Positions 5,177 to 63,459 of a stretch of 64,000 nucleotides of DNA are shown in pieces. The translations under genes were made by a program, and so were the position numbers. Origin of the DNA: an uncultured Clostridia bacterium (GTDB lineage Bacteria; Bacillota; Clostridia; Christensenellales; CAG-917); NCBI GenBank assembly GCA_944363035.1, contig CALVTS010000001.1, positions 691-64,690 of the forward strand, in the 5' to 3' direction. Every line of letters begins with the position of its first letter. The stretch's first letter is position 1. The notes under the pieces are model-generated. The model saw only the letters and a list, made by a program, of their open reading frames with translations, was not told the DNA's origin and ran no database searches.

Positions 5177-5213
5177 TGCCGGACCGCAACAATACGGACC
5201 GCCGGCGTCGGCA
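5177..5213. mobile_element. Mini remnant of the MITE family (two degenerate TIR tips only), TA-flanked, 2 nt from the GDPD stop codon
   Basis: ta-tgccggaccgcaacaatacggacc...gccggcgtcggca-ta. The left tip matches the TIR consensus TGCCRGAC(M)GGAATAATACGAACC with mismatches. Confidence 0.35.
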
Positions 5214-5215
5214 TA

Positions 5216-7546: not shown

Positions 7547-7621
7547 GCCCTCATGGTCAAGCGGTTAAGACGTCGCCCTCTCACGGCGGAATCTGGGGTT
7601 CGATTCCCCATGAGGGTACCA
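7547..7621 (+). tRNA. tRNA-Glu (anticodon CUC), CCA encoded
   Basis: Manual cloverleaf. Acceptor gccctca/tgagggt; D arm gtcaagcggttaagac; anticodon stem tcgcc/ggcgg with loop cu-CUC-ac; T arm tgggg-ttcgatt-cccca; discriminator A plus CCA. 75 nt. Confidence 0.88.
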
Positions 7622-7728
7622 ATAAAAAAACCACCGAACTAACGGTGGGTTTTTTATTTTTTCCCTCAAAAATGGGTACCAATAAAAAAACCACCGAACT
7701 AACGGTGGGTTTTTTATTTTTTCCCTCA
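7614..7728 (+). repeat. Exact 55-bp duplication (period 60 bp) of the tRNA 3' end (gggtacca) plus its intrinsic terminator
   Basis: gggtaccaataaaaaaaccaccgaactaacggtgggttttttattttttccctca occurs at 7614-7668 and again at 7674-7728. Each copy has the hairpin ccaccg-aactaa-cggtgg flanked by an A-run and a T-run. Confidence 0.9.
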
Positions 7729-7804: not shown

Positions 7805-9193
7805 TCATGACATATTGGCAAGGTTCGGCTGTGCAAAAGCGCCGAAAAGAATTGCTCTGAGGCCGGTTTGTATTATTCCTGTCTGGCATGCCGCGTTGCG
7901 TTCGGCAATAACGCGTGCGACGTTTTCCACCTCGGCGTTCACGGCGGAGGAGATATAGGGGGCGGGATTTGCGACACAACCGTCCTCGACGCGCAGACCT
8001 CTGCCGTGGATGGTTTCGCCCGAGGGCCAATATATGAGCGCGGTGGTGAGGTGGAGCACCTCCCCTGTCCAACGGTTGGTGAAATTCTGTTGCATACAGC
8101 CTTTGCCGTAGGAACTGCCGCTTTTGAACAAAGAGGGATCGGCGCCTATATCCTCCGCGTCGTAAGAGGAGAGGAAGATGTTGCGGCGTTCCGTGACGCC
8201 GTAGTCGATAAGACATCCTACCAGCGCTTCTGATGCGCTCGCGCTGTTGCCGTTCATCATGACGTAGACTTTTGCCGAAGATGGGATATATCTGCCCTCC
8301 TCCGCCCGATAGGCGTAATATTCCCCCTCATACGCTCTGCCGCCGTAACTCATGAACATCTTGCCCGCAGACCCCTCGAAGCAGGCGGCGATGTGGCAGG
8401 CGACGTCGATATATCCGCCGCCGTTGTTTCTTAGATCCAGAATGAGGGCATCGAGCCCGAGCTCGGTGAATCTCGCGCAGGCGAGAGCGAACTGCTCCGC
8501 CGCGTTGCCGTGGAACCCCGAGAGGGAGATATACGCCGTGCCCTCGGGAAGATAGGAGATGACGTCGTCGGGAGAGGAGGTCATCGTGAGCGCGCCACTC
8601 CCCGTAAAGCTCCATGCCTCGCTGTTTGTCGCCATCAGCACATAGCTCTGGTCGTACGCCGCCGTCCTGTACTCAAAAGTCTTTTCGCGCCCCTCTCTCT
8701 CAAAGACGAAACGCGCGATATTGCCCTCCGCAGTCTCCGAAAGCGCGGCTTCCAGACTTTCGTAGGGCGCATTGACGAAATCCAGCGTCTCGCCGTCGCG
8801 GGTCTCGGCGCGAAGCACTCTGTCCCCGACGCGAACGCCGGCCTCCCATGCGGGAGAATTGCCGTTGCACAAATACACGTACGCATACCCCGCGATGACG
8901 CCCACCGAAAAGCCCGCGTTCTGCATCTCGCCCGCGTTGGAGGCGAACACCTCGGCGTATTCCTCTGCGGTATAGTAGGCGGAAAACGCGTCGAGATATT
9001 CCTCCACTATCTCGTCGGCAGACATGGATGAAGCCCCGCTAAGGTCCACTTCCTCGTAATAATAGTCGCCGATGACAGAGATCGCCCACTCGGTGGAAGT
9101 CGGCGCGGAACAAGCCGTCAGCACGCACAAGAGGAGCGCCAACGCCGCCATGACAGATAATATCTTTCTCGAACGGATGAGTTTTTCCTTCAT
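7805..9193 (-). CDS. S41-family (C-terminal processing type) peptidase lipoprotein; its last ~27 codons are derived from a MITE fragment
   Basis: S41 motifs LRNNGGGYIDVA and NGNSASASEALVG are present. I moved the start to MKEKLIRSRKILSVMAALALLLCVLTAC (lipobox) at 9193. The C-terminus ACQTGIIQTGLRAILFGAFAQPNLANMS is the translated repeat, and the same peptide appears in the spurious ORF 13159..13362. Confidence 0.8.
   Translation of the reverse strand: MKEKLIRSRKILSVMAALALLLCVLTACSAPTSTEWAISVIGDYYYEEVDLSGASSMSADEIVEEYLDAFSAYYTAEEYAEVFASNAGEMQNAGFSVGVIAGYAYVYLCNGNSPAWEAGVRVGDRVLRAETRDGETLDFVNAPYESLEAALSETAEGNIARFVFEREGREKTFEYRTAAYDQSYVLMATNSEAWSFTGSGALTMTSSPDDVISYLPEGTAYISLSGFHGNAAEQFALACARFTELGLDALILDLRNNGGGYIDVACHIAACFEGSAGKMFMSYGGRAYEGEYYAYRAEEGRYIPSSAKVYVMMNGNSASASEALVGCLIDYGVTERRNIFLSSYDAEDIGADPSLFKSGSSYGKGCMQQNFTNRWTGEVLHLTTALIYWPSGETIHGRGLRVEDGCVANPAPYISSAVNAEVENVARVIAERNAACQTGIIQTGLRAILFGAFAQPNLANMS
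7811..7888 (+). mobile_element. Truncated MITE copy (right half only) forming the 3' end of the S41 peptidase CDS
   Basis: catattggcaaggttcggctgtgcaaaagcgccgaaaagaattgctctgaggccggtttgtattattcctgtctggca aligns with the right halves of the copies at 12479-12757 and 12903-13224. Confidence 0.8.
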
Positions 9194-12478: not shown

Positions 12479-12757
12479 TGCCGGAACGGAGTAATACGAA
12501 CAGGGTCCGGCGCCGCCGATTTCCGCCTGAACCGCGTCATTCGCCTTGCTAATACAGTCAAGTATTAGCTACGGCGACTTCCTTGTTCAGCCAAAAATCG
12601 GTTGGCGCGGAACTGCTCGCACCTCAGAGCAAGAGATTTTCGGATGATGTTGCACGGGCGGAACGTAGGCAATAGTATACATATTGGCAAGGTTCGGCTG
12701 TGCAAAAGCGCCGAAAAGAATTGCTCCGAGGCCGGTTCGTATTATTCCGTTCCGGCA
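12479..12757 (+). mobile_element. MITE copy 1 (279 bp), TA-flanked, no ORF
   Basis: TIRs are tgccggaacggagtaatacgaac and gttcgtattattccgttccggca, with TA at 12477-78 and 12758-59. Internal hairpins are ggttcag..ctgaacc and gctaatac-agtcaa-gtattagc. The 21-nt core lies at 12671-12691. Confidence 0.8.
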
Positions 12758-12902
12758 TATGGTTGAAACCCCATATGCTCGTAAAAGCCCACCGCGACGC
12801 GCGCCTTCCTGCCCCTTACGGCAGGGAAAAAGAGGGCGAAGAATATCGCCGCATAGTATCCCAGCGCATACGGCAGAAGTTTTGCCAGTTCTCTGCCCGC
12901 TA

Positions 12903-13224
12903 TGCCAGACAGGAATAATACGAACCAGGTTCAGCGCCGCCGATTTCCGCCTGAACCGCGTCATTCGCCTTGCTAATACAGTCAAGTATTAGCTACAGCG
13001 ACTTTTACCCCAACTGAAAATCATAGATTTTCACTCGGGGACCCCGAAATTGCTCAGCCAAAAATCGGTTGGCGCGGAACTGCTCGCACCTCAGAGCAAA
13101 AGATTTTCGGATGATGTTGCACGGGCGGAACGCAGACAATAGTATACATATTGTCAAGTTACGGCTGTGCAAAAGCGCCGAAAAGAATTGCTCCGAGGCC
13201 GGTTTGTATTATTCCGGTCTGGCA
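12903..13224 (+). mobile_element. MITE copy 2 (322 bp, carries a ~43-bp internal insertion), TA-flanked
   Basis: TIRs are tgccagacaggaataatacgaacc and ggtttgtattattccggtctggca, with TA at 12901-02 and 13225-26. It is collinear with copy 1. The core variant aatagtatacatattgtcaag lies at 13138-13158. Confidence 0.8.
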
Positions 13225-13429
13225 TAGTAAAGCAAGGGCACGAACGCCGCCACGACCGCCTCTGCGGCGAGAGTCGCGCGATGGGTCATAAATTCCGAAA
13301 ATGAAAGTCTGCGAGCCATTTTCCCCCTCCGTTTGCCGACAAGATGCGACAAATGTCGGCAAGAGGATTATAGCCCGCAGTCTACCCTTTCGTCGAGACC
13401 GCCCGACGCGTCTGCGTCGGGCGGGAAAC

Positions 13430-27346: not shown

Positions 27347-28497
27347 CCGCTTATCCTTTCTTCCGTCTGCGCCTTGAGCTCGACATAGACTCCGCCCTCC
27401 CCTCTTGTGCACTTGGTCTCAAGTGAGAGTATCTCGGCGTCCGAGGGCAGTCCCGCAAGGAAGCTCCCCTCCGTCTCTCCCGCCATCTCCTCCTCGGAAA
27501 GCGCGTTCGCTCTCTCGACATATGAGACTTCGCGGAAGACGTAGGTGTACAGCTCGTAGCCCAGCAAAAACTCATTCCTGCTCACGCTCACTTCGAGGAT
27601 GTGATCCTCAAAAGGGCTCTCGGGCGGGACGGGCGCGTCCCCGTTGAAGGACAGCCTGGCCTCGCGGTGCACCCTGCCGTATTCCCGCACTATCTCTGTG
27701 TCCGGGAAAAACCGCGTCACGGTGCGGGAGACCAGCCCGAAGACCTCCCCGTCCGCAGGACAGGGCACCTTCTCCTCCCCCGACATGACGTATGCGCCGA
27801 TGAGCACGTCCCCGGGCTTCACCACGTCGCCGTAGCTCACCTCGGCGGTGCCCGACCTCACCACGACCCTAGTGACGGACGAGGCGACGGACGCCTTGAC
27901 CTCTCCCGACGGGATGTCCACAAAACCCGGACCCTCCCTTTCTGCGTGCACGTCCACGTATACGCGCGTGCCCTGCTTGGTCACCGAAGCGAACGCCACT
28001 CCGTCCAACGCGAGCAATCTGCGTTCCAGCTCTCCGCCGTCGAACGCGGGCAGGAAAGCCCATTCGCGCACCCCGCTCTCCTCCACCGCCCTGCGGACGG
28101 AGGGTATCTCGTCCCCGGAATACTCCACCTCGATGACGAACATCGGGTAAAGGATAAGGAGCGCGAGGGAGAGCAATGCGCCCAAAACCACTCCCGCGCG
28201 CCCGAGTGCGCGCACAAAAAAGAGAGCTATCCCTCTTTCTTTTATTATTTTATAATTGTAGCATAAGCATTCGCAGATTGCAACAACCTTTGCCGCGTCG
28301 CGGGAGGGCACCGAAAACCTCGGTCCCTTCCCTCCCCTTTCCGAACGCACATCCGTCTCCCTGCCTATCCGCGTGAGCAACCTCCCGAGATTGAGCCGCT
28401 CCGTCTCGAACACGGTGCGGGAAAAGGGTATGCGGGCTCGAAGCGCGCCGCTTTTTCTTTCGGCGCTTCCGTTTTTCTCTTTCCGTCTAGCCGTCAA
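27343..28497 (-). CDS. yqfD: Sporulation protein YqfD
   Basis: The size, a single central TM helix (AGVVLGALLSLALLILYPMFVI) and the position between yqfC and phoH all fit. The start is uncertain: the track start at 28497 is a TTG. Confidence 0.7.
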   Translation of the reverse strand: MTARRKEKNGSAERKSGALRARIPFSRTVFETERLNLGRLLTRIGRETDVRSERGGKGPRFSVPSRDAAKVVAICECLCYNYKIIKERGIALFFVRALGRAGVVLGALLSLALLILYPMFVIEVEYSGDEIPSVRRAVEESGVREWAFLPAFDGGELERRLLALDGVAFASVTKQGTRVYVDVHAEREGPGFVDIPSGEVKASVASSVTRVVVRSGTAEVSYGDVVKPGDVLIGAYVMSGEEKVPCPADGEVFGLVSRTVTRFFPDTEIVREYGRVHREARLSFNGDAPVPPESPFEDHILEVSVSRNEFLLGYELYTYVFREVSYVERANALSEEEMAGETEGSFLAGLPSDAEILSLETKCTRGEGGVYVELKAQTEERISG

Positions 28498-28762
28498 ACG
28501 TCACCTCGCTCACCTTGCCTTTGAGCAACACATCCCCTCCGCCTATCTCGGCGACCTCCAGTCCTTCGCCCTTGACAAGAAGAAAATTTTTTCGCAATCC
28601 GACTTTTATCTCATCGGATGAGATATATAAAATCTCTTTTACGCCGCTTATCGAGACCCCCGCCCTTCCGAGCAAAGTTATGACGAAAGGAAGAAAAGGC
28701 TCCTCGAGTTTCAGCTTTGACAACGCCTCGTCAGGAAACATACTAAATCTTATGCCCGTCAC
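28487..28762 (-). CDS. yqfC: Sporulation protein YqfC
   Basis: 91 aa. The motifs SISGVKEILYISSDEIKV and LLVKGEGLEVAEI match the YqfC family, and the synteny fits. Confidence 0.75.
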   Translation of the reverse strand: MTGIRFSMFPDEALSKLKLEEPFLPFVITLLGRAGVSISGVKEILYISSDEIKVGLRKNFLLVKGEGLEVAEIGGGDVLLKGKVSEVTFDG

Positions 28763-28776
28763 GAAAAATTATTTTG

Positions 28777-28862
28777 TGCCGGACCGGAATAATACGAACC
28801 AGCCTCAGAACAATTCTTTTCGGCGCTTTTGCGCGGGCGACACATAGACGATAGTAGACATA
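28777..28862 (-). mobile_element. MITE arm fragment fused to a separate core-bearing hairpin module
   Basis: tgccggaccggaataatacgaaccagcctcagaacaattcttttcggcgcttttgcg is followed by ...atagtagacatattggcaa (the core variant, which runs on to 28869). Confidence 0.6.
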
Positions 28863-29353
28863 TTGGCAAATCGCCGCCGTCGCGGAAATATACGAACCCT
28901 TTTTTATAAGCGTCAGAAAAGGCAAGCGTCCGAGGGGGTAAAGCGCGCCCGAGAGCAAGAGATTTTTGTTCGAGTTGCGGACGGCGGAGTCTCAAATCGG
29001 TGCAGAGATATTGGCATACTGCCGCCGCGAACATATATGAACCCTTTTTTTATAAGTGTCAGAAAGGCAAGCGCCCGGGAGGGTAAAGCACGCCCGAGAG
29101 CAAGAGATTTTCGGATGATGTTGCACGGGCGGAGGGTCGAATCGGCGCAGGGATATTACATACCGCCGCCGCGAACATATATGAACCCTCTTTTTATAAG
29201 TGTCATAAAGGCAAGCGCCCGAGAGGGTAAAGCGCGCCCGAGAGCAAGAGATTTTGTTCGAGTTGCGGACGGCGGAGGGTCGAATCGGCGCAGGGATATT
29301 ACATACCGCCGCCGAGGATATATACGAATCCCTTTTTATAACTGTCAGAAAAG
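28863..29353. repeat. Tandem array of a ~144-bp unit (about 3.4 copies, periods 148/144/143 bp)
   Basis: The reference word ccgccg(c/t)(c)g..atat(a/g)(t/c)gaaccc occurs at 28874, 29022, 29166 and 29309. Units alternate between two internal variants, gttcgagttgcggacggcgga and cggatgatgttgcacgggcgga. Confidence 0.85.
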
Positions 29354-29518
29354 GCAAGCGCCCGGGAGGGTAAAAATACGCCCGAGAGCAAGAGATTTTC
29401 GGATGATTTCGGAGGATAGCTCCGCCGCTAATAGTATACATATTAGCAAGGAGCTATCCTTTGAAAGCGCCGAAAAGAATTGCTCTCGGGCGTGTTTGTT
29501 ACCCTCTCGGGCGCTTGC
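29354..29518. repeat. 165-bp near-perfect long hairpin with the 21-nt core at its apex, starting 2 nt after the dnaB stop
   Basis: The left arm gcaagcgcccgggagggtaaaaatacgcccgagagcaa pairs with the right arm ttgctctcgggcgtgtttgttaccctctcgggcgcttgc. The inner stem is ggatagctcc/ggagctatcc. The apex aatagtatacatattagcaag lies at 29430-29450. On the minus strand the hairpin is followed by ttttctg. Confidence 0.85.
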
Positions 29519-29520
29519 TC

Positions 29521-31194
29521 CTAAAAAGGTAGGTCTCCCTCTTCCGGCGCCTCGTCCTCGAAAGCGTCGTCGTAGTCGTCCACGAATTCGTCTTCTTCGT
29601 CCTCTTCCTCCTCTTCGGGCTCGGAGGGGGAGGCGGAATATTCCTCGTCGGAGAGTTGCTCTGAGGCTTGGGTGAGACCGTCGTCGAGGTCGAAGGGCGG
29701 GACGTCCTCTGCCGCTTCGGCAAAGGGGAGCAAGCCGTTGTCCGTCTCGGGGATGTCTACAAATTCCTCCTCGTCCTCTGCGGAGGGCGCCTTTTCCTCG
29801 GGAGGGGCGCTTTGCTCATGATGAGGCGCGGGCGCGGGGCTCTCCCCCGCTCCGCCGTGGACGCACTCGCGGAATGTGGTGGTCTCGCCCTCCCATTGCA
29901 GATCCACTTCCCCTACGGGACCGTTTCGGTTCTTGCGTATGATGAGCTTGATGAGGTCCTCGGGGACGGCGGGATTGAACTGGCTCTCCTTGTGCAGGAA
30001 CATGACCATATCCGCGTCCTGCTCTATCGCGCCGGATTCTCTGAGGTCGCTGAGCTTGGGGACGTGGTCGTTGCGCTGTTCCACGCCGCGGGACATCTGG
30101 GAAAGCAGGAGAATGGGCACGCCGAGTTCCTTGGCATAAATCTTCATGCTTCTGGACATCTCGCTGACCTCCACCTGTCTGCTCTCGCCCGAACGGCCCG
30201 TACCGCCCGCCGTCATGAGTTGGAGATAGTCGATGATGACAAGATCCAGCCCCTGATCGCGTTTGAGCCTGCGGCACTTCGAGAGCACGTCGGAGGGAGA
30301 GTTCATGGAATAGTCGTCGATGTAAAGATTCGCGCCCAAAAGGCGGCGATAGGCGTCATACAGCTTGCCCGTGCCGGCGTTGGACAGCCCTCCCGTGGAG
30401 TCCATCGCAGAGAGGGAACACCCCGAAACGTGCGCGAGCATACGCTTCACCAGAAGTTGCGCGGGCATTTCCAGCGAAAATACCGCCACCGTCTTGTTGT
30501 GTTTCAGGCAGGCGTTTGCGGCTATGTTGAGCGCGAACGCCGTCTTGCCAACAGAGGGACGTGCGGCGACCAGGATGAGTTCGCCCGGTTTCAGACCGTG
30601 GGACATCCTGTCCAGAGAGGGGAAATCGGTGTACACGGCGTCGTTGGTGACCACGCCCGCCTGTACGTCCTGGATGCTCTTCATCGCCTCGCCGAGGGCT
30701 TCGCCCGCGTGCACGAGATCCTTCTCGCTGAGGTCCTCCGAGATGGAGTACACCTCCCTTTCCGCATTGAGGAGGGCGTCCGTACCGCTCACCGACTTAT
30801 ATCCCTCTTTCGCGATATTGTTGCCCGCCGTGATGACGCGGCGTATCAGAGAATCGCGCTTTACTATGTCCGCATAGTTGTCCGCGCCCGCAGAGGAAGG
30901 GATACACTCGGCAAGGGAGGTGAGATAATCTATGCCGCCCACGTCGTCCAGCTTGCCTTCCAGCATGAGCCTGTCTGCCACCGACACCGTGTCCACCACC
31001 GAAGAGGCGTCCAGAAGCGCGCGCATGGCGGCGAATACCGTGCGGTTCGCGGTGACGTAAAAGTCCTCGGCGCGCAGGGTGGGGATGAGCTGATCCGCAG
31101 TGCGGTTGTCAATGAGGATGGAGCCGAGCAATGCTTGCTCCGCCTCTGTGTTGTGCGGCATGACGCGATAGATCTCTTTGGGTTTCTCCGGCAT
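29521..31194 (-). CDS. dnaB: Replicative DNA helicase DnaB with a ~105-aa acidic C-terminal extension ending in DLPF
   Basis: PHNTEAEQALLGSILIDN, Walker A ARPSVGKTAFALN and RNGPVGEVDLQWEGETTTF are present, followed by HGGAGESPAPAP...EEEEEDEEDEFVDDYDDAFEDEAPEEGDLPF. I moved the start to MPEKPKE at 31194. Confidence 0.9.
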   Translation of the reverse strand: MPEKPKEIYRVMPHNTEAEQALLGSILIDNRTADQLIPTLRAEDFYVTANRTVFAAMRALLDASSVVDTVSVADRLMLEGKLDDVGGIDYLTSLAECIPSSAGADNYADIVKRDSLIRRVITAGNNIAKEGYKSVSGTDALLNAEREVYSISEDLSEKDLVHAGEALGEAMKSIQDVQAGVVTNDAVYTDFPSLDRMSHGLKPGELILVAARPSVGKTAFALNIAANACLKHNKTVAVFSLEMPAQLLVKRMLAHVSGCSLSAMDSTGGLSNAGTGKLYDAYRRLLGANLYIDDYSMNSPSDVLSKCRRLKRDQGLDLVIIDYLQLMTAGGTGRSGESRQVEVSEMSRSMKIYAKELGVPILLLSQMSRGVEQRNDHVPKLSDLRESGAIEQDADMVMFLHKESQFNPAVPEDLIKLIIRKNRNGPVGEVDLQWEGETTTFRECVHGGAGESPAPAPHHEQSAPPEEKAPSAEDEEEFVDIPETDNGLLPFAEAAEDVPPFDLDDGLTQASEQLSDEEYSASPSEPEEEEEDEEDEFVDDYDDAFEDEAPEEGDLPF

Positions 31195-31499
31195 TTCTGG
31201 CTCCTTGTCGCAACGCGCCGAAGGGCGCGCCGTGCGTCCGCGCTCCGTCGCGCGGGCGAGCGTTTGATATATTGTATCATAGGGCGGAAGAATTTTCAAG
31301 TTTTGTCTCGCCGCATCGGGAATATCCCCCGCCGACCGCATTTTCGGCGTCATCTCCCCCGCCCGAAGGGTGCGGCGCGTCCCGTACGCGAAGTCTCCCT
31401 CGCCGAAAACCAACGCTCTCGTCATAAAACAAAGAGCAAAAAAAGAGGCGGCATTCGCCGCCCCGACGTCGATCGTATCCCGAGGATACGGATGGACGT

Positions 31500-33296: not shown

Positions 33297-33375
33297 TTCT
33301 GTCTCCTGCCGAAGCGTCGCGTCGGATGCGTTGCGCTTGAAAGCCGCAGAACGCCTCCACGGGATGTTGTTCCCA

Positions 33376-33437
33376 TGCCGAAGCGGAATAATACGAACCG
33401 ACCTCGGAGCAATTCTTTTCGGCGCTTTTGCACAGCC
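33376..33437 (-). mobile_element. MITE arm fragment (one TIR arm, 62 bp)
   Basis: tgccgaagcggaataatacgaaccgacctcggagcaattcttttcggcgcttttgcacagcc. Confidence 0.7.
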
Positions 33438-33448
33438 GCAAATTCAAA

Positions 33449-49229: not shown

Positions 49230-49305
49230 CATGCTCAGAATGAGTGTGCGTGGGAGTCAAACACGTCTCCGAATAAGTGTGCGGCGTGTTCGAAGTAATT
49301 TAAAT
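49230..49305 (-). repeat. Two degenerate 32-33 nt units (family D), inverted orientation
   Basis: cagaatgagtgtgcgtgggagtcaaacacgtct and ccgaataagtgtgcggcgtgttcgaag are reverse complements of the cccacgNNNNctcattcgg...gtttgaa units at 62528-62690. Confidence 0.7.
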
Positions 49306-49659
49306 GGGGGGAGCGTCCCCTGACATGGTAATATTGTACCCCCTCCTCCCCTTCGGGACTCCTCCCCCACTCGGAATAGAGGACTGTCCTCCTAAAATGC
49401 GGGATATACTTTTTCATAAAGGCGCGAACTGCGCCTTTATGAAAACACCTCTTGAAAAAGGTTTGAGTCTCGCACTTGCATAATCAAGCGGATACAAGTA
49501 CCCACTTAACGGCGCTCGCGGGGCGAGGAGGGCGACTCGACGCGCACCGAGCCCGTGTCTACTTAATAGCCGTCTGGCTTGCGAGATCGCAGATACGCGC
49601 CGCGACTTGCAAGAGCGGGCGCAAACGCCCGCTGTGCAAGTTTGAGTGAGCGGCGCGTG
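49306..49659 (+). repeat. Family X element, copy A (354 bp, non-coding, hairpin-rich)
   Basis: It aligns end to end with 49738-50090 and 63068-63422. See the findings. Confidence 0.85.
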
Positions 49660-49737
49660 GTTTCGTCTTCGAATGAGAGATGCGAGGTTCAGGCTCCACT
49701 CCAAATAAGTTCACGTGGGAGTCAGGCTAATTCAATT
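49660..49737 (-). repeat. Family D units between the X copies
   Basis: tcttcgaatgagagatgcgaggttcaggc and tccactccaaataagttcacgtgggagtcaggc. Confidence 0.65.
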
Positions 49738-50090
49738 GGGGTTTACGCCCCCTAACATGGAAGTATTGCACCCCCTCCTCCCCTTCGGGACTCCTCCCCC
49801 ACTCGGAATAGAGTTCATTCCTCCTAAAATGCGGGATATGCTTTTTCATAAAGGCGCGAACTGCGCCTTTATGAAAACACCTCTTGAAAAAGTTTGAGTC
49901 TCGCACTCACATAATCAAGCGGATACCAGTATAGACTTAACGTCGCTCGCGGGGCGAGGAGGGCGACTCGACGCGCACCGAGCCCGTGTCTACTTAATAG
50001 CCGTCTGGCTTGCGAGATCGCAGATACGCGCCGCGACTTGCAAGAGCGGGCGCAAACGCCCGCTGTGCAAGTTTGGGTGAGCGGCGCGTG
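49738..50090 (+). repeat. Family X element, copy B (353 bp)
   Basis: It lies 432 bp downstream of copy A. It contains the invariant hairpin tttcataaaggcgc-gaact-gcgcctttatgaaa at 49844-49876. Confidence 0.85.
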
Positions 50091-50194
50091 AGACCGTCTC
50101 CGAATAGGTATAGGTGGGAGTCAGGCTCCACTCTGAATGAGTGTACGTGGAATTCAAACACGCTCCGAATAAGTATACGTGGGGTTCAGGCACA
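50091..50194 (-). repeat. Three to four family D units
   Basis: gtctccgaataggtataggtgggagtcaggc, tccactctgaatgagtgtacgtggaattcaaacacg and ctccgaataagtatacgtggggttcaggc. Confidence 0.65.
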
Positions 50195-50725
50195 GTCACC
50201 CAGGTGACGGGCAAAGCGGGTGAGGAATGTGTTTCGGGCGAGGAGATTTGCGTTTGGGCAAGAAACTAAAAGAGTGACGTGCAAAGCGGGTGAGGAGTCG
50301 CCTGCGGGAGTTCCCTCCCGCAGGTGCTTGCAGTTTTGAACAGCCGATTTTTGTCTGAGCGCGAAAGCGCGCGCAGGCAATAGTATACATATTGGCAAGC
50401 GCGCTGACAAAGCTCAGGCGGAAATACATTAAACCCAAACTTGAAATACACCGTCACCCAGGTGACGGGCAAAGCGGGTGAGGAATGTGTTTCGGGCGAG
50501 GAGATTTGCGTTTGGGCAAGAAACTAAAAGAGTGACGTGCAAAGCGGGTGAGGAGTCGCCTGCGGGAGTTCCCTCCCGCAGGTGCTTGCAGTTTTGAACA
50601 GCCGATTTTTGTCTGAGCGCGAAAGCGCGCGCAGGCAATAGTATACATATTGGCAAGCGCGCTGACAAAGCTCAGGCGGAAATCGGCAGTTCAAAACCGA
50701 CTCCAAACCCGCTTTGCACGTCACC
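50195..50725. repeat. Family C element: a 231-bp segment perfectly duplicated at a 258-bp period, bounded by inverted termini GGTGACG(G/T)GCAAAGCGGGT. The right terminus overlaps the mrr stop codon.
   Basis: 50195-50425 equals 50453-50683 with no difference that I can see, and the track ORFs 50186..50410 and 50429..50668 give identical peptides. Internal hairpins include gtcacc-cag-gtgac and cctgcgggag-ttcc-ctcccgcagg. The 21-nt cores lie at 50379-50399 and 50637-50657. The right terminus ccaaacccgctttgcacgtcacc lies at 50703-50725. Confidence 0.85.
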
Positions 50726-51635
50726 CCAAAAACAACTCGTCGTCGATGTGCCAAACGCCGTCCGAGGAGCGCACGCCCACTTCGTTGGCGAACATCATGT
50801 CGAGGAGCGTGGTGCAATCGATGAGGAGGAGTTCGGCGCGTTTTGCGGCGAAGGTCCTGGTCTCGCGGTGGAAACGGGAGTTGGTGATGAGGATGCCTTT
50901 GGTCGCGCCCCATGCGACCATGACGCCCAGAAACTCGCGCACCACTTTGACTGAGACATAAGCCTTTTCGTTGAGCTTGGTCTTGGACTGGAAAAAGATG
51001 AGTTCCTTGAAACCGGCGGGGTCTTCGATATAGAGTTTGCCGTCGATGCCGTTGTCATCGGGACCTGCGGTGAGCTCGTTGCGCTTGACGGTGCTGCCGT
51101 AGACGGCGAGGAGGAGCTTCATGCTGAGCTCCTCAAAGAATTCTCCGCCCGCCTCGCTTATCGCCCGCGAAAGGGAACGGCGGAGGGCGGCGAGATATTT
51201 GTCCTTCTGAAGCTTGCCCGCCTTGTATTCCTGAAATTTTTTGTCCGCGCTCTCCAAGGTGCGCCCGAGGGGGGAATCGGGATACTTGGGGACTTTTGCG
51301 GCGCGTTCGGCGGCGCGTTTGCGCTGGGCGCGGCGGCGTTGCGTCCTGGTGAGCCCGCTCTTTTGTTCCTGCACGGGTTTCGGAGGCGCAAGCCTGCCGT
51401 CCTCGGTGGTGACGAGGCTCCCCGCCGCCAACATCTCGTTGAGCACCACGCCCGTGAGACTTTTCAGCTTGGTGTTGAGGGACTCGCAACTGCGGTCCTT
51501 GAGCTCCGCCGCGGAATATCCGTAGCGGGTGAGCGAACGCTCGATGAGGAGCTTGCGCTCGGTGCCTTCTTTATCCAGCACGGCTTTTACCGCGCTCTCT
51601 ATCTCCTGTTTGGAGGGAAAATCTCTCTTTGCCAT
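50721..51635 (-). CDS. Mrr-like type IV restriction endonuclease (Mrr_N winged-helix plus Mrr_cat PD-(D/E)xK domain)
   Basis: 304 aa. The N-terminus is Mrr_N-like (KQEIESAVKAVLDKEG..SLTRYGYSAAEL...SLTGVVLNEMLAAGSLV), followed by a basic linker. The C-terminal part reads FEELSMKLL..GPDDNGIDG..IFFQSKTK..VVREFLGVM..ATKGILITNSRF. Confidence 0.7.
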   Translation of the reverse strand: MAKRDFPSKQEIESAVKAVLDKEGTERKLLIERSLTRYGYSAAELKDRSCESLNTKLKSLTGVVLNEMLAAGSLVTTEDGRLAPPKPVQEQKSGLTRTQRRRAQRKRAAERAAKVPKYPDSPLGRTLESADKKFQEYKAGKLQKDKYLAALRRSLSRAISEAGGEFFEELSMKLLLAVYGSTVKRNELTAGPDDNGIDGKLYIEDPAGFKELIFFQSKTKLNEKAYVSVKVVREFLGVMVAWGATKGILITNSRFHRETRTFAAKRAELLLIDCTTLLDMMFANEVGVRSSDGVWHIDDELFLG

Positions 51636-53001: not shown

Positions 53002-53279
53002 TGCCAGACAGGAATAATACGAACCAGCCTCGGAGCAATTCTTTTCGGCGCTTTTGCACAGCCGAAACTTGCCAATATGTATATATTGCCTGCGTTCCGC
53101 CAGAGCAAAATCATCCGAAAATCTCTTTCTCTGAGGTGCGAGCAGTTCCGCGCCAACCGATTTTTGGCTGAGCAAGGAAGTTGCCGTCGCTAATACTTGA
53201 CTGTATTAGCAAGGCGAGTGACGCGGTTCAGGCGGAAATCGGCGGCGCTGAACCTGGTTCGTATTATTCCTGTCTGGCA
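53002..53279 (-). mobile_element. MITE copy 3 (278 bp), inverted relative to copies 1 and 2
   Basis: TIRs are tgccagacaggaataatacgaacc and ggttcgtattattcctgtctggca. TA is present on the right (53280-81) and GA on the left. It is collinear with the reverse complement of copy 1. The core variant lies at 53068-53088. Confidence 0.8.
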
Positions 53280-62527: not shown

Positions 62528-62690
62528 CCCACGCACACTCATTCGGAGGGTTCTTGAACTCCCACGCACGCTCATTCAGGGTGTGTTTGAATCCCACGTA
62601 TACTTATTCGGGGTGTGTTTGAACTTTACGTTTCTTCTTCGGAGCGTCCTTGAACACGACGTGCACTTATTCGGAGTGGAGCCGCCTAGC
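62528..62690 (+). repeat. Five head-to-tail degenerate 32-33 nt units (family D)
   Basis: Units start at 62528, 62561, 62593, 62626 and 62659. The pattern is cccacg-N5-ct(c/t)attc(g/a)g(g/a)g-N-gt(g/t)tttgaa(c/t)t, with no unique spacers. Confidence 0.8.
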
Positions 62691-62975
62691 CAAACTTGCA
62701 CAGGGCGTAGCCCTCTTGCAAGTCGGCGGCGACGAAGTGAGTGCCGAGGGCGAGACGAAAAGTGCGTCGGCAATGCGCCATTCTCTTCGCGAAGCGGGCG
62801 CATTGCAAGCGGCATAACATGGCGGCGCCGCAGAGGCGCCGTCCTCGGTAGCCCTCATGCCCGAGCGCCGAAGGTTTCCCCCAAAATGGTGGGTTCCCTT
62901 TTAAGGGGGAACGATTTTGGGGGAAACCCGCAGGAAGGGGGCAAAAATATTTCCCTGTCGCGGGAACGTAACCCC
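62690..62975 (-). repeat. Diverged, inverted relative of the family X element (conserved termini, different hairpin-rich interior)
   Basis: Its reverse complement starts ggggttacgttccc and ends acttgcaagagggc-tac-gccctgtgcaagtttgg. The interior has its own strong hairpins, for example ggtttcccccaaaat...attttgggggaaacc (15 bp) and gcaatgcgcc...ggcgcattgc. Confidence 0.7.
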
Positions 62976-63067
62976 TCAAATTAAATTAGACTGGGCACGC
63001 CGCACACTTATTCGTCGTGTTCGGGGACGCTCTGAATAAGTTCACGTCGTATTCAGGCTGGTTTAAT

Positions 63068-63422
63068 GGGGTATACGTCCCCTAACATGGGAGTATTGTA
63101 CCCCCTCCTCCCCTTCGGGACTCCTCCCCCACTCGGAATAGAGAACTGTCCTCCTAAAATGCGGGACTTACTTTTTCATAAAGGCGCGAACTGCGCCTTT
63201 ATGAAAACACCTCTTGAAAAAGGTTTAAGTCTCGCACTTGCATAATCAAGCGGATACCAGTATAGACTGAACGTCGCTCGCGGGGCGAGGAGGGCGACTC
63301 GACGCGCACCGAGCCCGTGTCTACTTAATTTCTCGTCTAGCTTGCGAGGTCGCAGATACGCGCCGCGACTTGCAAGAGCGGGCGTAAACGCCCGCTGTGC
63401 AAGTTTGGCTGAGCGGCGCGTG
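63068..63422 (+). repeat. Family X element, copy C
   Basis: It is collinear with copies A and B, at an offset of 13332 bp from copy B at the 3' end. Substitutions are scattered (for example tacttaatttctcgtctagcttgcgaggtcgc against tacttaatagccgtctggcttgcgagatcgc). Confidence 0.85.
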
Positions 63423-63459
63423 AGACCGTCTTCGAATGGGTTTTCATCGTGCTCAAACG

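Follow-up and report, generated by a model that had tools for sequence, protein, structure and literature searches.

A mobile, MITE-like hairpin repeat of Christensenellales with a nearly constant tip on covarying stems

Hairpin modules in the window

The window, by which we mean the whole 64-kb stretch of DNA (64,000 nucleotides) analysed here, has a G+C content of 57% and encodes the sporulation proteins YqfC and YqfD, which places its host among the Clostridia. Between dnaB and yqfC/yqfD lies an array of hairpin repeats, whose orientation is opposite to that of yqfC/yqfD. The final array unit, at 29354..29518 (+), is a complete hairpin of the stem family that we call A. A preliminary description of the DNA had placed this unit 2 nt from the dnaB stop and had proposed that it forms a hairpin with a 21-nt core at its tip. 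Both points were confirmed: the minus-strand ORF 29521-31425 carries the Pfam domains DnaB and DnaB_C, and the unit adopts a single near-perfect 165-nt fold, with an energy of -121.8 kcal/mol as RNA (z = -17.5) and -70 kcal/mol as DNA (z = -15.1). Covariance model R1 gave it 114 bits on the plus strand and 32 bits on the minus strand. Its 28-nt apical motif occupies 29423-29450 (+), with the 21-nt core at 29430-29450.

Immediately before this hairpin, about 3.4 units of 144 bp form a tandem array at 28871..29353 (+), recognized by Tandem Repeats Finder, by repeat families D3 and D15 and in the sequence. Each unit consists of a 5' outer arm, a short inner hairpin, a degenerate tip (..gcagGGATATTACATAC..) and a linker, and has no 3' outer arm. 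The array adjoins a half MITE at 28776..28870 (+; repeat family D10), in which a terminal inverted repeat and the reverse complement of the 3' arm are joined to a core variant at 28850-28870 with three mismatches, the tip being inverted relative to the arm.

All eight core sites listed earlier for the window were found again. The copies at 12671, 50379 and 50637 are exact, and those at 13138 and 29430 have one mismatch each, both at variable NN positions of the core. The copy at 53068, on the minus strand, is one base short and thus fell outside the mismatch search, and that at 7810-7822 starts within the core, at ACATATTGGCAAG. Dinucleotide-preserving shuffles of the window gave no match at up to three mismatches, compared with the six found. 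The stem pairs quoted before (ggatagctcc/ggagctatcc, gcacgggcggaac/gttcggctgtgc, gagattttcgg/ccgaaaag and gagcaa/ttgctc) are also present. A covariance-model search revealed no cryptic copies besides those known.

Three of these copies belong to MITE-like elements with two modules each. The first, at 12479..12757 (+), is 279 bp long and bounded by TGCC...GGCA. Its right module (family A) spans 12623-12739, with the core at 12671-12691, and its left module (family B), at 12498-12611, is sense on the minus strand and carries a variant tip, GCTAATAC-N6-GTATTAGC. The second, at 12903..13224 (+; 120 bits with the covariance model), is a 322-bp version with the right module at 13090-13206, the core at 13138-13158 and an extra 43-nt mini-hairpin insert. 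The third, at 53002..53279 (-; 278 bp, 102 bits), lies in inverted orientation; its module at 53020-53135 (-) contains the core 53068-53088 with the one-base deletion. The first two elements appear to interrupt a short minus-strand frame at 12760-13290 (start ATGACCCATCGC.. near 13290), which may be a small membrane-protein gene split by insertions or a chance ORF.

Family B also occurs outside the MITEs. A 3'-truncated unit at 50191..50425 (+; repeat family D4), with its core at 50379-50399, is 100% identical over 235 nt to the next one, a complete hairpin unit at 50449..50725 (+; 43 bits; core 50637-50657) whose 3' arm continues and pairs with the 5' arm. Directly after these hairpins stands a gene for an Mrr-type restriction endonuclease (50721-51635). 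Two further half elements were detected: one at 7810..7889 (+; repeat family D2) starts within the core and continues with the 3' arm and the terminal repeat, and the other, at 33375..33444 (-; repeat family D10, 16.8 bits), consists of the terminal repeat and 3' arm and ends about 4 nt short of the expected core. Finally, inspection of the sequence revealed a 39-nt remnant at 5177..5215, without assigned strand, that has nothing except terminal-repeat-like ends (TGCCGGACCGCAACAATACGGACC...GCCGGCGTCGGCA), with TA on either side. It may have arisen from a MITE by internal deletion or be an excision scar.

Other features of the window were noted in passing. The half MITE at 7810 lies about 80 nt beyond a segment (7547-7728) that contains tRNA-Glu(CTC) followed by a perfect 60-bp tandem duplication (7614-7728) including a terminator hairpin. 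A second, unrelated set of non-coding repeats occupies 49238-50190 and 62528-63441. Its units of about 430 bp (49300-49678, 49731-50109 and 63062-63441; 62-94% identity) each contain the perfect hairpin tttttcataaaggcgcgaactgcgcctttatgaaaa and are bordered by 32-nt tandem motifs (CTCCGAATAAGTGTGCG.. at 62528-62625); neither an ORF nor an Rfam match was found in this set. The palindrome CTGCAG does not occur in the window (0 observed, about 9 expected by a Markov estimate), and CTATAG and ACATGT are likewise absent, which hints at restriction-site avoidance, as judged from these counts. GTATAC, with 16 observed and 16.8 expected, gave no sign of such avoidance.

A nearly constant tip on covarying stems

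To survey other genomes, one reference genome per species was scanned with the pattern ATAGTATACATATTNNCAAG, which yielded at least 95 loci. Among the matches listed, 82 loci, all from Christensenellales or unnamed Clostridia MAGs, held at least about 107 copies, and 13 were isolated chance matches in unrelated taxa. Many of the copies sit at contig ends of MAGs. In about ten Christensenellales genomes, among the matches listed, 81 copies had at least 110 nt on each side, and in all 81 the core lies at a hairpin tip, enclosed in the minimum-energy fold by 20-74 flank-to-flank base pairs. The objection that the core might lie mostly outside inverted repeats therefore fails. The other objection, that the palindromes might be simple derivatives of one master copy, fails as well, because the stems fall into several unrelated sequence families. 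A phage or plasmid origin was rejected, since the IMG/VR phage collection gave one chance match only and blastn found no match among the 72,556 plasmids of PLSDB.

We aligned 33 mutually divergent copies over 117 nt, nearly without gaps; mean column identity was 69%. The module is an imperfect hairpin of 100-190 nt with a fixed architecture of five helices, two of which are U4/A4 tracts. It is capped by the 28-nt apical motif C-GCA-G-NN-AAUA-GUAUACA-UAUU-NN-C-AA-G, of which the 21-nt core, AATAGTATACATATTGGCAAG, forms the centre. This motif folds into a 7-bp A/U mini-stem with a 7-nt loop and a 3x2 internal loop beneath. In alignment columns, the mini-stem pairs are G46-C66, 47-65 and 48-64, followed by AAUA with UAUU around the loop GUAUACA, and the internal loop is GCA/AA, closed by C42-G69. 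Below it come a 6-bp helix and an 8-bp helix that opens with the U-tract paired to the A-tract; further out follow a 2-bp step, a 6-bp AUUUUNN/NNAAAAG helix and outer stems that vary in length.

The tip and its 5' flank are nearly constant across carriers that have no common stem sequence. Eighteen positions were forced to match by the search pattern, so their constancy is partly a matter of ascertainment. Columns 42-46 and 49 (C, GCA, G and A) are 90-100% conserved although they lie outside the pattern, and a match at 18 of 18 positions would be essentially impossible had the tip drifted at the rate of the stems. Some secondary copies have changes in the tip: the loop is altered in loci L034, L060 and L063 and at 28850 in the window, the mini-stem is broken in L014, L021 and L035, and the internal array units of the window have degenerate tips. 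Thus, the motif is strongly constrained and not absolutely fixed.

The variant tip of the MITE left module, CGCAG-CTAATAC-N6-GTATTAG-CAAGG, was informative about which part is constrained. Its 6-nt loop is free to vary, with 7 versions in 24 copies, whereas the mini-stem GCTAATAC/GTATTAGC is fixed and the flanks CGCAG and CAAGG are constant in the same 24 copies. The constrained part therefore looks like the mini-stem together with the internal loop, not the loop alone, and the earlier idea that the hairpin is recognized through its loop was not borne out. The two tip variants also differ in the spacing of their half-sites (7 nt versus 8 nt).

Under the explicit structure, 88.5% of cells in the 33 divergent copies form standard pairs, compared with only 39-48% after a shift of the 3' partners by 1-3 columns. 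Double changes were found in 24 of 33 pairs, amounting to 185 compensatory cells, and none of 500 shuffles reached the observed values of pairing or compensation. Covariation extends to the NN positions of the core, which change together with the two bases immediately 5' of it (columns 47 and 48); CG, UA, AU, GU and GC pairs were all observed. Compensatory changes span the whole stem, beyond the terminal repeats. These values support the proposal of a conserved tip on covarying stems, which may change so long as pairing persists.

Pairing is also specific to one strand. When the copies were clustered at <85% identity, giving 41 clusters, RNA of the core strand was more stable than that of its complement in 38, by a mean difference of -13 kcal/mol (Wilcoxon p = 1e-7), and contained 223 G·U pairs, against 111 on the opposite strand. 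The aligned helices hold 93 G·U or U·G and 18 A·C or C·A combinations, and the covariance model built from the alignment scored the same copies at 102-120 bits in sense and 25-32 bits in antisense. For the left module of the MITEs, the opposite strand was the more stable one in 8 of 8 representatives. A general mutational strand bias does not explain the G·U excess, because the flanks have no matching G excess: their GC skew on the core strand averages -0.012, with 28 loci positive and 42 negative. Selection thus preserves pairing within the hairpin on the strand reading AATAGTATACATATT and acts on a single-stranded form of defined polarity, in agreement with the suggestion that the hairpin works as a single strand. 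Since G·T wobbles are tolerated in ssDNA hairpins too, the asymmetry alone cannot separate RNA from ssDNA.

Carriers, insertion sites and neighbouring genes

The same tip occurs in MITE-like elements, tandem arrays and stand-alone hairpins, which supports the modular, mosaic design proposed before. Family A has stems of the form agagcaagagattttcgg...ccgaaaagaattgctc, and family B, represented in the window at 50.2-50.7 kb, has ccgatttttgnctgagc...gctcaggcggaaatcgg. Family C, in lower-GC relatives, reads gacaaggcaaa-stem-CGMAGNY-core-stem'-ttaac, with stems such as aaagtc/gacttt, aacaccg/cggtgtt, aatccc/gggttt and aaaacc/ggtttt. In several array families the stems share little sequence with the window copies, and the hairpin feet differ by carrier (TGCC.., TCGG.., CCTG.. 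and GCAAGCG..).

Three size classes (187, 279 and 322 bp) were found among the MITE-like carriers, whose terminal inverted repeats measure about 24-25 nt; in 35 complete elements both ends carry TGCCAGACAGGAATAATACGAACC. The 279-bp form (window 12479, 12903 and 53002) combines a family-A module with a family-B module of opposite polarity. The mini-hairpin in the 322-bp element (window 13000-13050), ccccaactgaaaatcatagattttcactcgggg, recurs in loci L006, L027 and L049, that is, in other genomes, and therefore behaves as a third movable sub-module.

Tandem arrays have a period of 144-165 bp, or 258 bp in family B. The 3' outer arm is missing from their internal units, and the full hairpin is closed by the last unit alone. 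Arrays of this kind include window 28871-29518 and 50191-50725 and loci L022, L046, L041/L075, L077/L018, L078, L050 and L093; the array of L022 starts at a core. In half elements the break lies at the tip or next to it (7810, 33375-33444 and 28776-28870 in the window, and L053 and L063). As origins of the arrays, we considered nested insertion and simple tandem duplication, and neither fits the family-B pair, in which trailing arm remnants are missing and the 23-nt spacer differs from the upstream flank.

Several observations indicated mobility. MITE copies within the window are 91-94% identical, and one site is filled in L070 and L095 and empty at the orthologous position of the window (~17.83-18.06 kb), beside a terminator. 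Insertions lie in intergenic, T-rich/A-rich sites. The base adjoining TGCC (position -1) is A at 91 of 92 ends, and position -2 is T in only 67%. TA stands on both sides of 11 of the 35 complete elements, the number expected from independent preferences of the two flanks. Carriers with other termini (TCGGA.., CCTGCCCG..) are likewise placed between A and T, and GGCA|TGCC junctions, in which two ends directly abut, are frequent. Insertion at A^T without duplication is possible. These data identify the module as a non-coding, MITE-like mobile repeat that is present in high copy number in Christensenellales and spreads by MITE-like elements and by tandem amplification.

We looked for a partner protein by all-against-all clustering of 462 ORFs from 83 loci together with a Pfam sample. 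Only housekeeping families recur near the copies (sigma factors, ABC, MatE, SmpB and others), and no recurring small ORF adjoins them. The cognate protein that had been expected near the copies did not emerge from this search: no transposase, HUH or RAYT-type gene is linked to them, and the window itself contains no transposase, HUH, Rep or Y1 gene. Modules are flanked by no conserved promoter or terminator. After removal of duplicates, the downstream gene is opposite to the module in 23 cases and co-oriented with it in 13. This difference is not significant and depends on crude gene calls, two callers often disagreeing; an orientation bias was thus rejected. In two species whose SigK proteins are 89% identical, module arrays lie upstream of sigK. 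Here (L041:1-440 and L046:1-540), 2-3 hairpin modules in the same orientation are located 100-125 nt upstream of the gene.

Known repeat classes and possible roles

The hairpins were compared with known RNA families. With Rfam 15 at gathering thresholds, the window and eight loci gave only tRNA and tmRNA elsewhere, and at E values up to 10 the two main regions gave, at the hairpins, sub-threshold matches to spurious miRNA models (E >=0.16). A known RNA family was therefore rejected. A hammerhead-like reading of CGGATGA...GAAA was rejected by eye, as this string is unconserved in other families and part of a helix. We know of no convincing match to the dif/Xer site or to LexA, NrdR or CodY boxes. 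Literature searches on the exact core string, on Christensenellaceae MITEs and on repeats with compensatory changes returned nothing relevant.

Among described repeats, the pneumococcal BOX (boxA-boxB(n)-boxC), RUP and the bcr1-type repeats of Bacillus cereus are Firmicute mosaic repeats that fold as RNA. They share with our module that they are short, non-coding, intergenic and multi-copy, with a modular build and tandem internal units, terminal inverted repeats, a hairpin fold with compensatory changes and MITE-like mobility. The module differs from them in that a single 28-nt tip, its most conserved part, is common to dissimilar stem families and several species, and in that the double element carries one module per strand. 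We file it as a variant of the structured interspersed repeats (BOX, RUP, bcr1, Correia and REP) with the constraint at the tip instead of the ends. In most bacterial MITE- and REP-type repeats the conserved, protein-recognized part is the ends or the hairpin foot. In the present repeat, it is the tip that stays invariant between carriers and species; the ends and stems vary in sequence and covary, and pairing is selected on one strand only, a combination that points to a function beyond simple recognition by a transposase.

The module looks like an undescribed single-strand module, probably RNA, with the tip as a putative docking site for a protein. Tentatively, and short of real confidence, we favour the reading that it is a new mobile structured RNA whose tip docks such a protein. 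The module would be transcribed within or beside whatever locus receives the insertion and would work as RNA, and the invariant mini-hairpin with its internal loop would be the docking site for a conserved protein. Candidates would be a host RNA-binding protein, a host RNase or a factor of the element itself, and adjoining genes might be affected through processing, stability or antisense. Because the double MITE has one module per polarity, transcription in either direction would yield one sense module. The tip position in 81 of 81 copies, the covariation, the strand-specific pairing and the arrays upstream of sigK in two species speak for this reading. Against it stand the missing promoter and terminator signals around the modules, gene orientations that show no bias towards co-transcription, the copies with altered tips and the degenerate tips of the internal array units. 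The apical loop contains UACAU, the MazF/EndoA cleavage pentad of Firmicutes, which we mention as a lead only; the variant tip has neither UACAU nor TAGTATAC.

The main rival holds that the hairpin folds as DNA when its strand becomes single-stranded, either at a replication fork or in the course of transfer or transposition as an intermediate, and that the tip is recognized by an ssDNA enzyme. We consider this a possible account, on balance rather unlikely. Strand-specific pairing agrees with it, and so do the lack of a consistent target duplication at MITE ends (TA on both flanks in 11 of 35), the frequent direct GGCA|TGCC junctions, the half elements with breaks at the tip or next to it (7810, 33444, L053 and L063), the L022 array that starts at a core and the completeness of the last array unit alone. 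On the other side, the flank GC skew does not mark the core strand as lagging-strand template, the phage and plasmid collections hold no match, and the loop of the variant tip, the expected nick site, varies freely.

In one form of this rival the enzyme would mobilize the element by HUH or Y1-type nicking, as at IS200/IS605 ends, in REP/RAYT systems or at viral Rep origins. ORF clustering and the Pfam sample found no HUH, Rep or Y1 gene near the approximately 105 copies or in the window. IS200/IS605-derived elements have two distinct subterminal hairpins, one at the left and one at the right end, lack terminal inverted repeats and insert 3' of a fixed tetra- or pentanucleotide. The module does not belong to them, as it forms one hairpin from end to end, carries terminal inverted repeats and has a left flank of only ..(T)A. 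REP and REPIN sequences are more similar, being high-copy palindromic intergenic hairpins with covarying stems that occur in clusters or mosaics (BIMEs) and are recognized as ssDNA by the single-copy HUH enzyme RAYT (TnpA-REP). They differ in that the determinant is GTAG at the hairpin foot; our module is conserved at the tip instead and has no GTAG-like foot, and no RAYT gene was found near its copies, which places it outside this class.

Origins of circoviruses, geminiviruses and other CRESS-DNA Rep systems present an invariant loop, NANTATTAC, on a variable paired stem, where Rep nicks ssDNA. The module loop TAGTATAC is one base short of the circovirus-type TAGTATTAC, a resemblance that we mention as no more than a lead in favour of nicking. 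Those origins have stems of 9-11 bp and are single-copy beside rep; the module forms long hairpins in hundreds of chromosomal copies with no rep gene present. Integron attC sites carry R''/R' boxes (RYYYAAC ... GTTRRRY) at the hairpin base, have a variable centre and stand in cassette arrays. The module was not assigned to them, as the pattern is reversed, with the tip conserved and the bases varying, and periods of 144-165 bp are too short for cassettes.

In the other form, the tip would prime complementary-strand synthesis, as RNA polymerase does at ssoA origins of plasmids, the nearest architectural analogue of the module. The ssoA is an imperfect hairpin of ~160 nt, functional on one strand only and recognized by host RNA polymerase, with the motif CS-6 (TAGCGT) in the terminal loop, RSB (TTATGCCGAGAAAATTT) near the base and stems that otherwise vary in sequence with conserved structure (PMC5703833, PMC4598088). 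The likeness of a ~160-nt hairpin with a loop motif and a basal motif argues for priming. CS-6 is absent from the module, and the RSB match, TTATGCCG or ATGCCGAG at element ends, covers 8 nt only; the ends in question read TTATGCCG.. (window 12475) and ATGCCGAGCGGAAAG (L046). The ssoA is single-copy on plasmids, in contrast to our chromosomal, multi-copy module, which has no blastn match to the 72,556 plasmids, and membership was rejected.

An ordinary dsDNA palindromic MITE, moved by a DDE transposase that acts on the terminal repeats and with a centre that is a host-factor site or merely inherited, is improbable. Terminal inverted repeats of ~25 bp, discrete sizes (187, 279 and 322 bp), T-rich/A-rich intergenic insertion, the filled (L070, L095) and empty (window 17.8-18.1 kb) site and many copies >90% identical are all expected of such an element. 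The centre could then serve a DNA-bending or accessory factor that joins the ends, like the IHF site of the Correia element, and bending would be favoured by the phased T4/A4 tracts and the AT-rich centre. This account fits the covariation and the G·U bias poorly: compensatory changes run along the whole stem and not the terminal repeats only, a 5:1 asymmetry of G·U to A·C is unexpected for a dsDNA site, and the tip half-sites covary without a fixed sequence, at a spacing of 7 nt in one variant and 8 nt in the other. Moreover, the terminal repeats vary by carrier around a constant centre, the reverse of what a MITE derived by deletion would show.

Of the features that define MITEs of the IS630/Tc1-mariner type, terminal inverted repeats were found in the 35 complete elements, and the obligate TA duplication was not, as both flanks are TA in 11 of 35. 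Because the flanks do not behave as a TA duplication, the IS630/Tc1 assignment suggested in the preliminary description is not established. The Correia element of Neisseria (CREE/NEMIS) is a 100-155-bp MITE with 26-bp terminal repeats, TA ends and a central IHF site, and its transcript forms a hairpin that is cleaved by RNase III. It resembles the module as a MITE with terminal repeats, TA at the ends and a functional central site. Its centre is a protein site in dsDNA, whereas that of the module is a covarying mini-hairpin; to our knowledge, neither a strand-biased G·U excess nor a tip common to unrelated stems has been described for it.

An internal sigma-70-type promoter, with -10 TAGTAT in the tip and -35 TTGnnn in the 5' helix strand and directed outward through the 3' arm, is suggested by TTGTCA-16-TAGTAT in all three L077 units and TTGCAC-17-TAGTAT in the MITE, and is very improbable, as the spacing drifts between 15 and 17 nt among families, TTG is absent in L046, L022 and family C, far fewer than 28 invariant bases would be needed, the T-run has an equally conserved counterpart, an A-run, in the other arm, orientation to downstream genes is inconsistent, and covariation and the G·U bias are left unexplained.

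If the module is RNA, as we tentatively favour, Christensenellales, a health-associated and poorly studied gut lineage, would carry hundreds of copies of one protein-docking RNA hairpin adjoining housekeeping and sporulation genes (dnaB, yqfC/D and sigK). As ssDNA, it may represent a novel mode of mobilizing or priming DNA. A still broader reading is doubtful at present: the modules would form a new single-strand class, RNA or ssDNA, with the invariant apical mini-hairpin as a portable docking site on many unrelated covarying stems, spread by MITE-like vehicles and arrays through the genomes of an order of gut Clostridia, with hundreds of sites in each, and would amount to a genome-wide RNA-protein network or to mobilization directed by the hairpin tip without target duplication.

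The repeats also have a practical consequence, as they break MAG assemblies, and the array beside dnaB assembles differently between samples. Assemblies with identical DnaB and MFS proteins have the same MITE content or differ in array length or junction only, and none of them offered a clean empty site. Compared with window 28400-29530, L098:4268-4800 has an identical DnaB, another number of array units and another downstream junction, leading to other genes and then gyrB; either the array was rearranged or the repeats gave rise to an assembly chimera.
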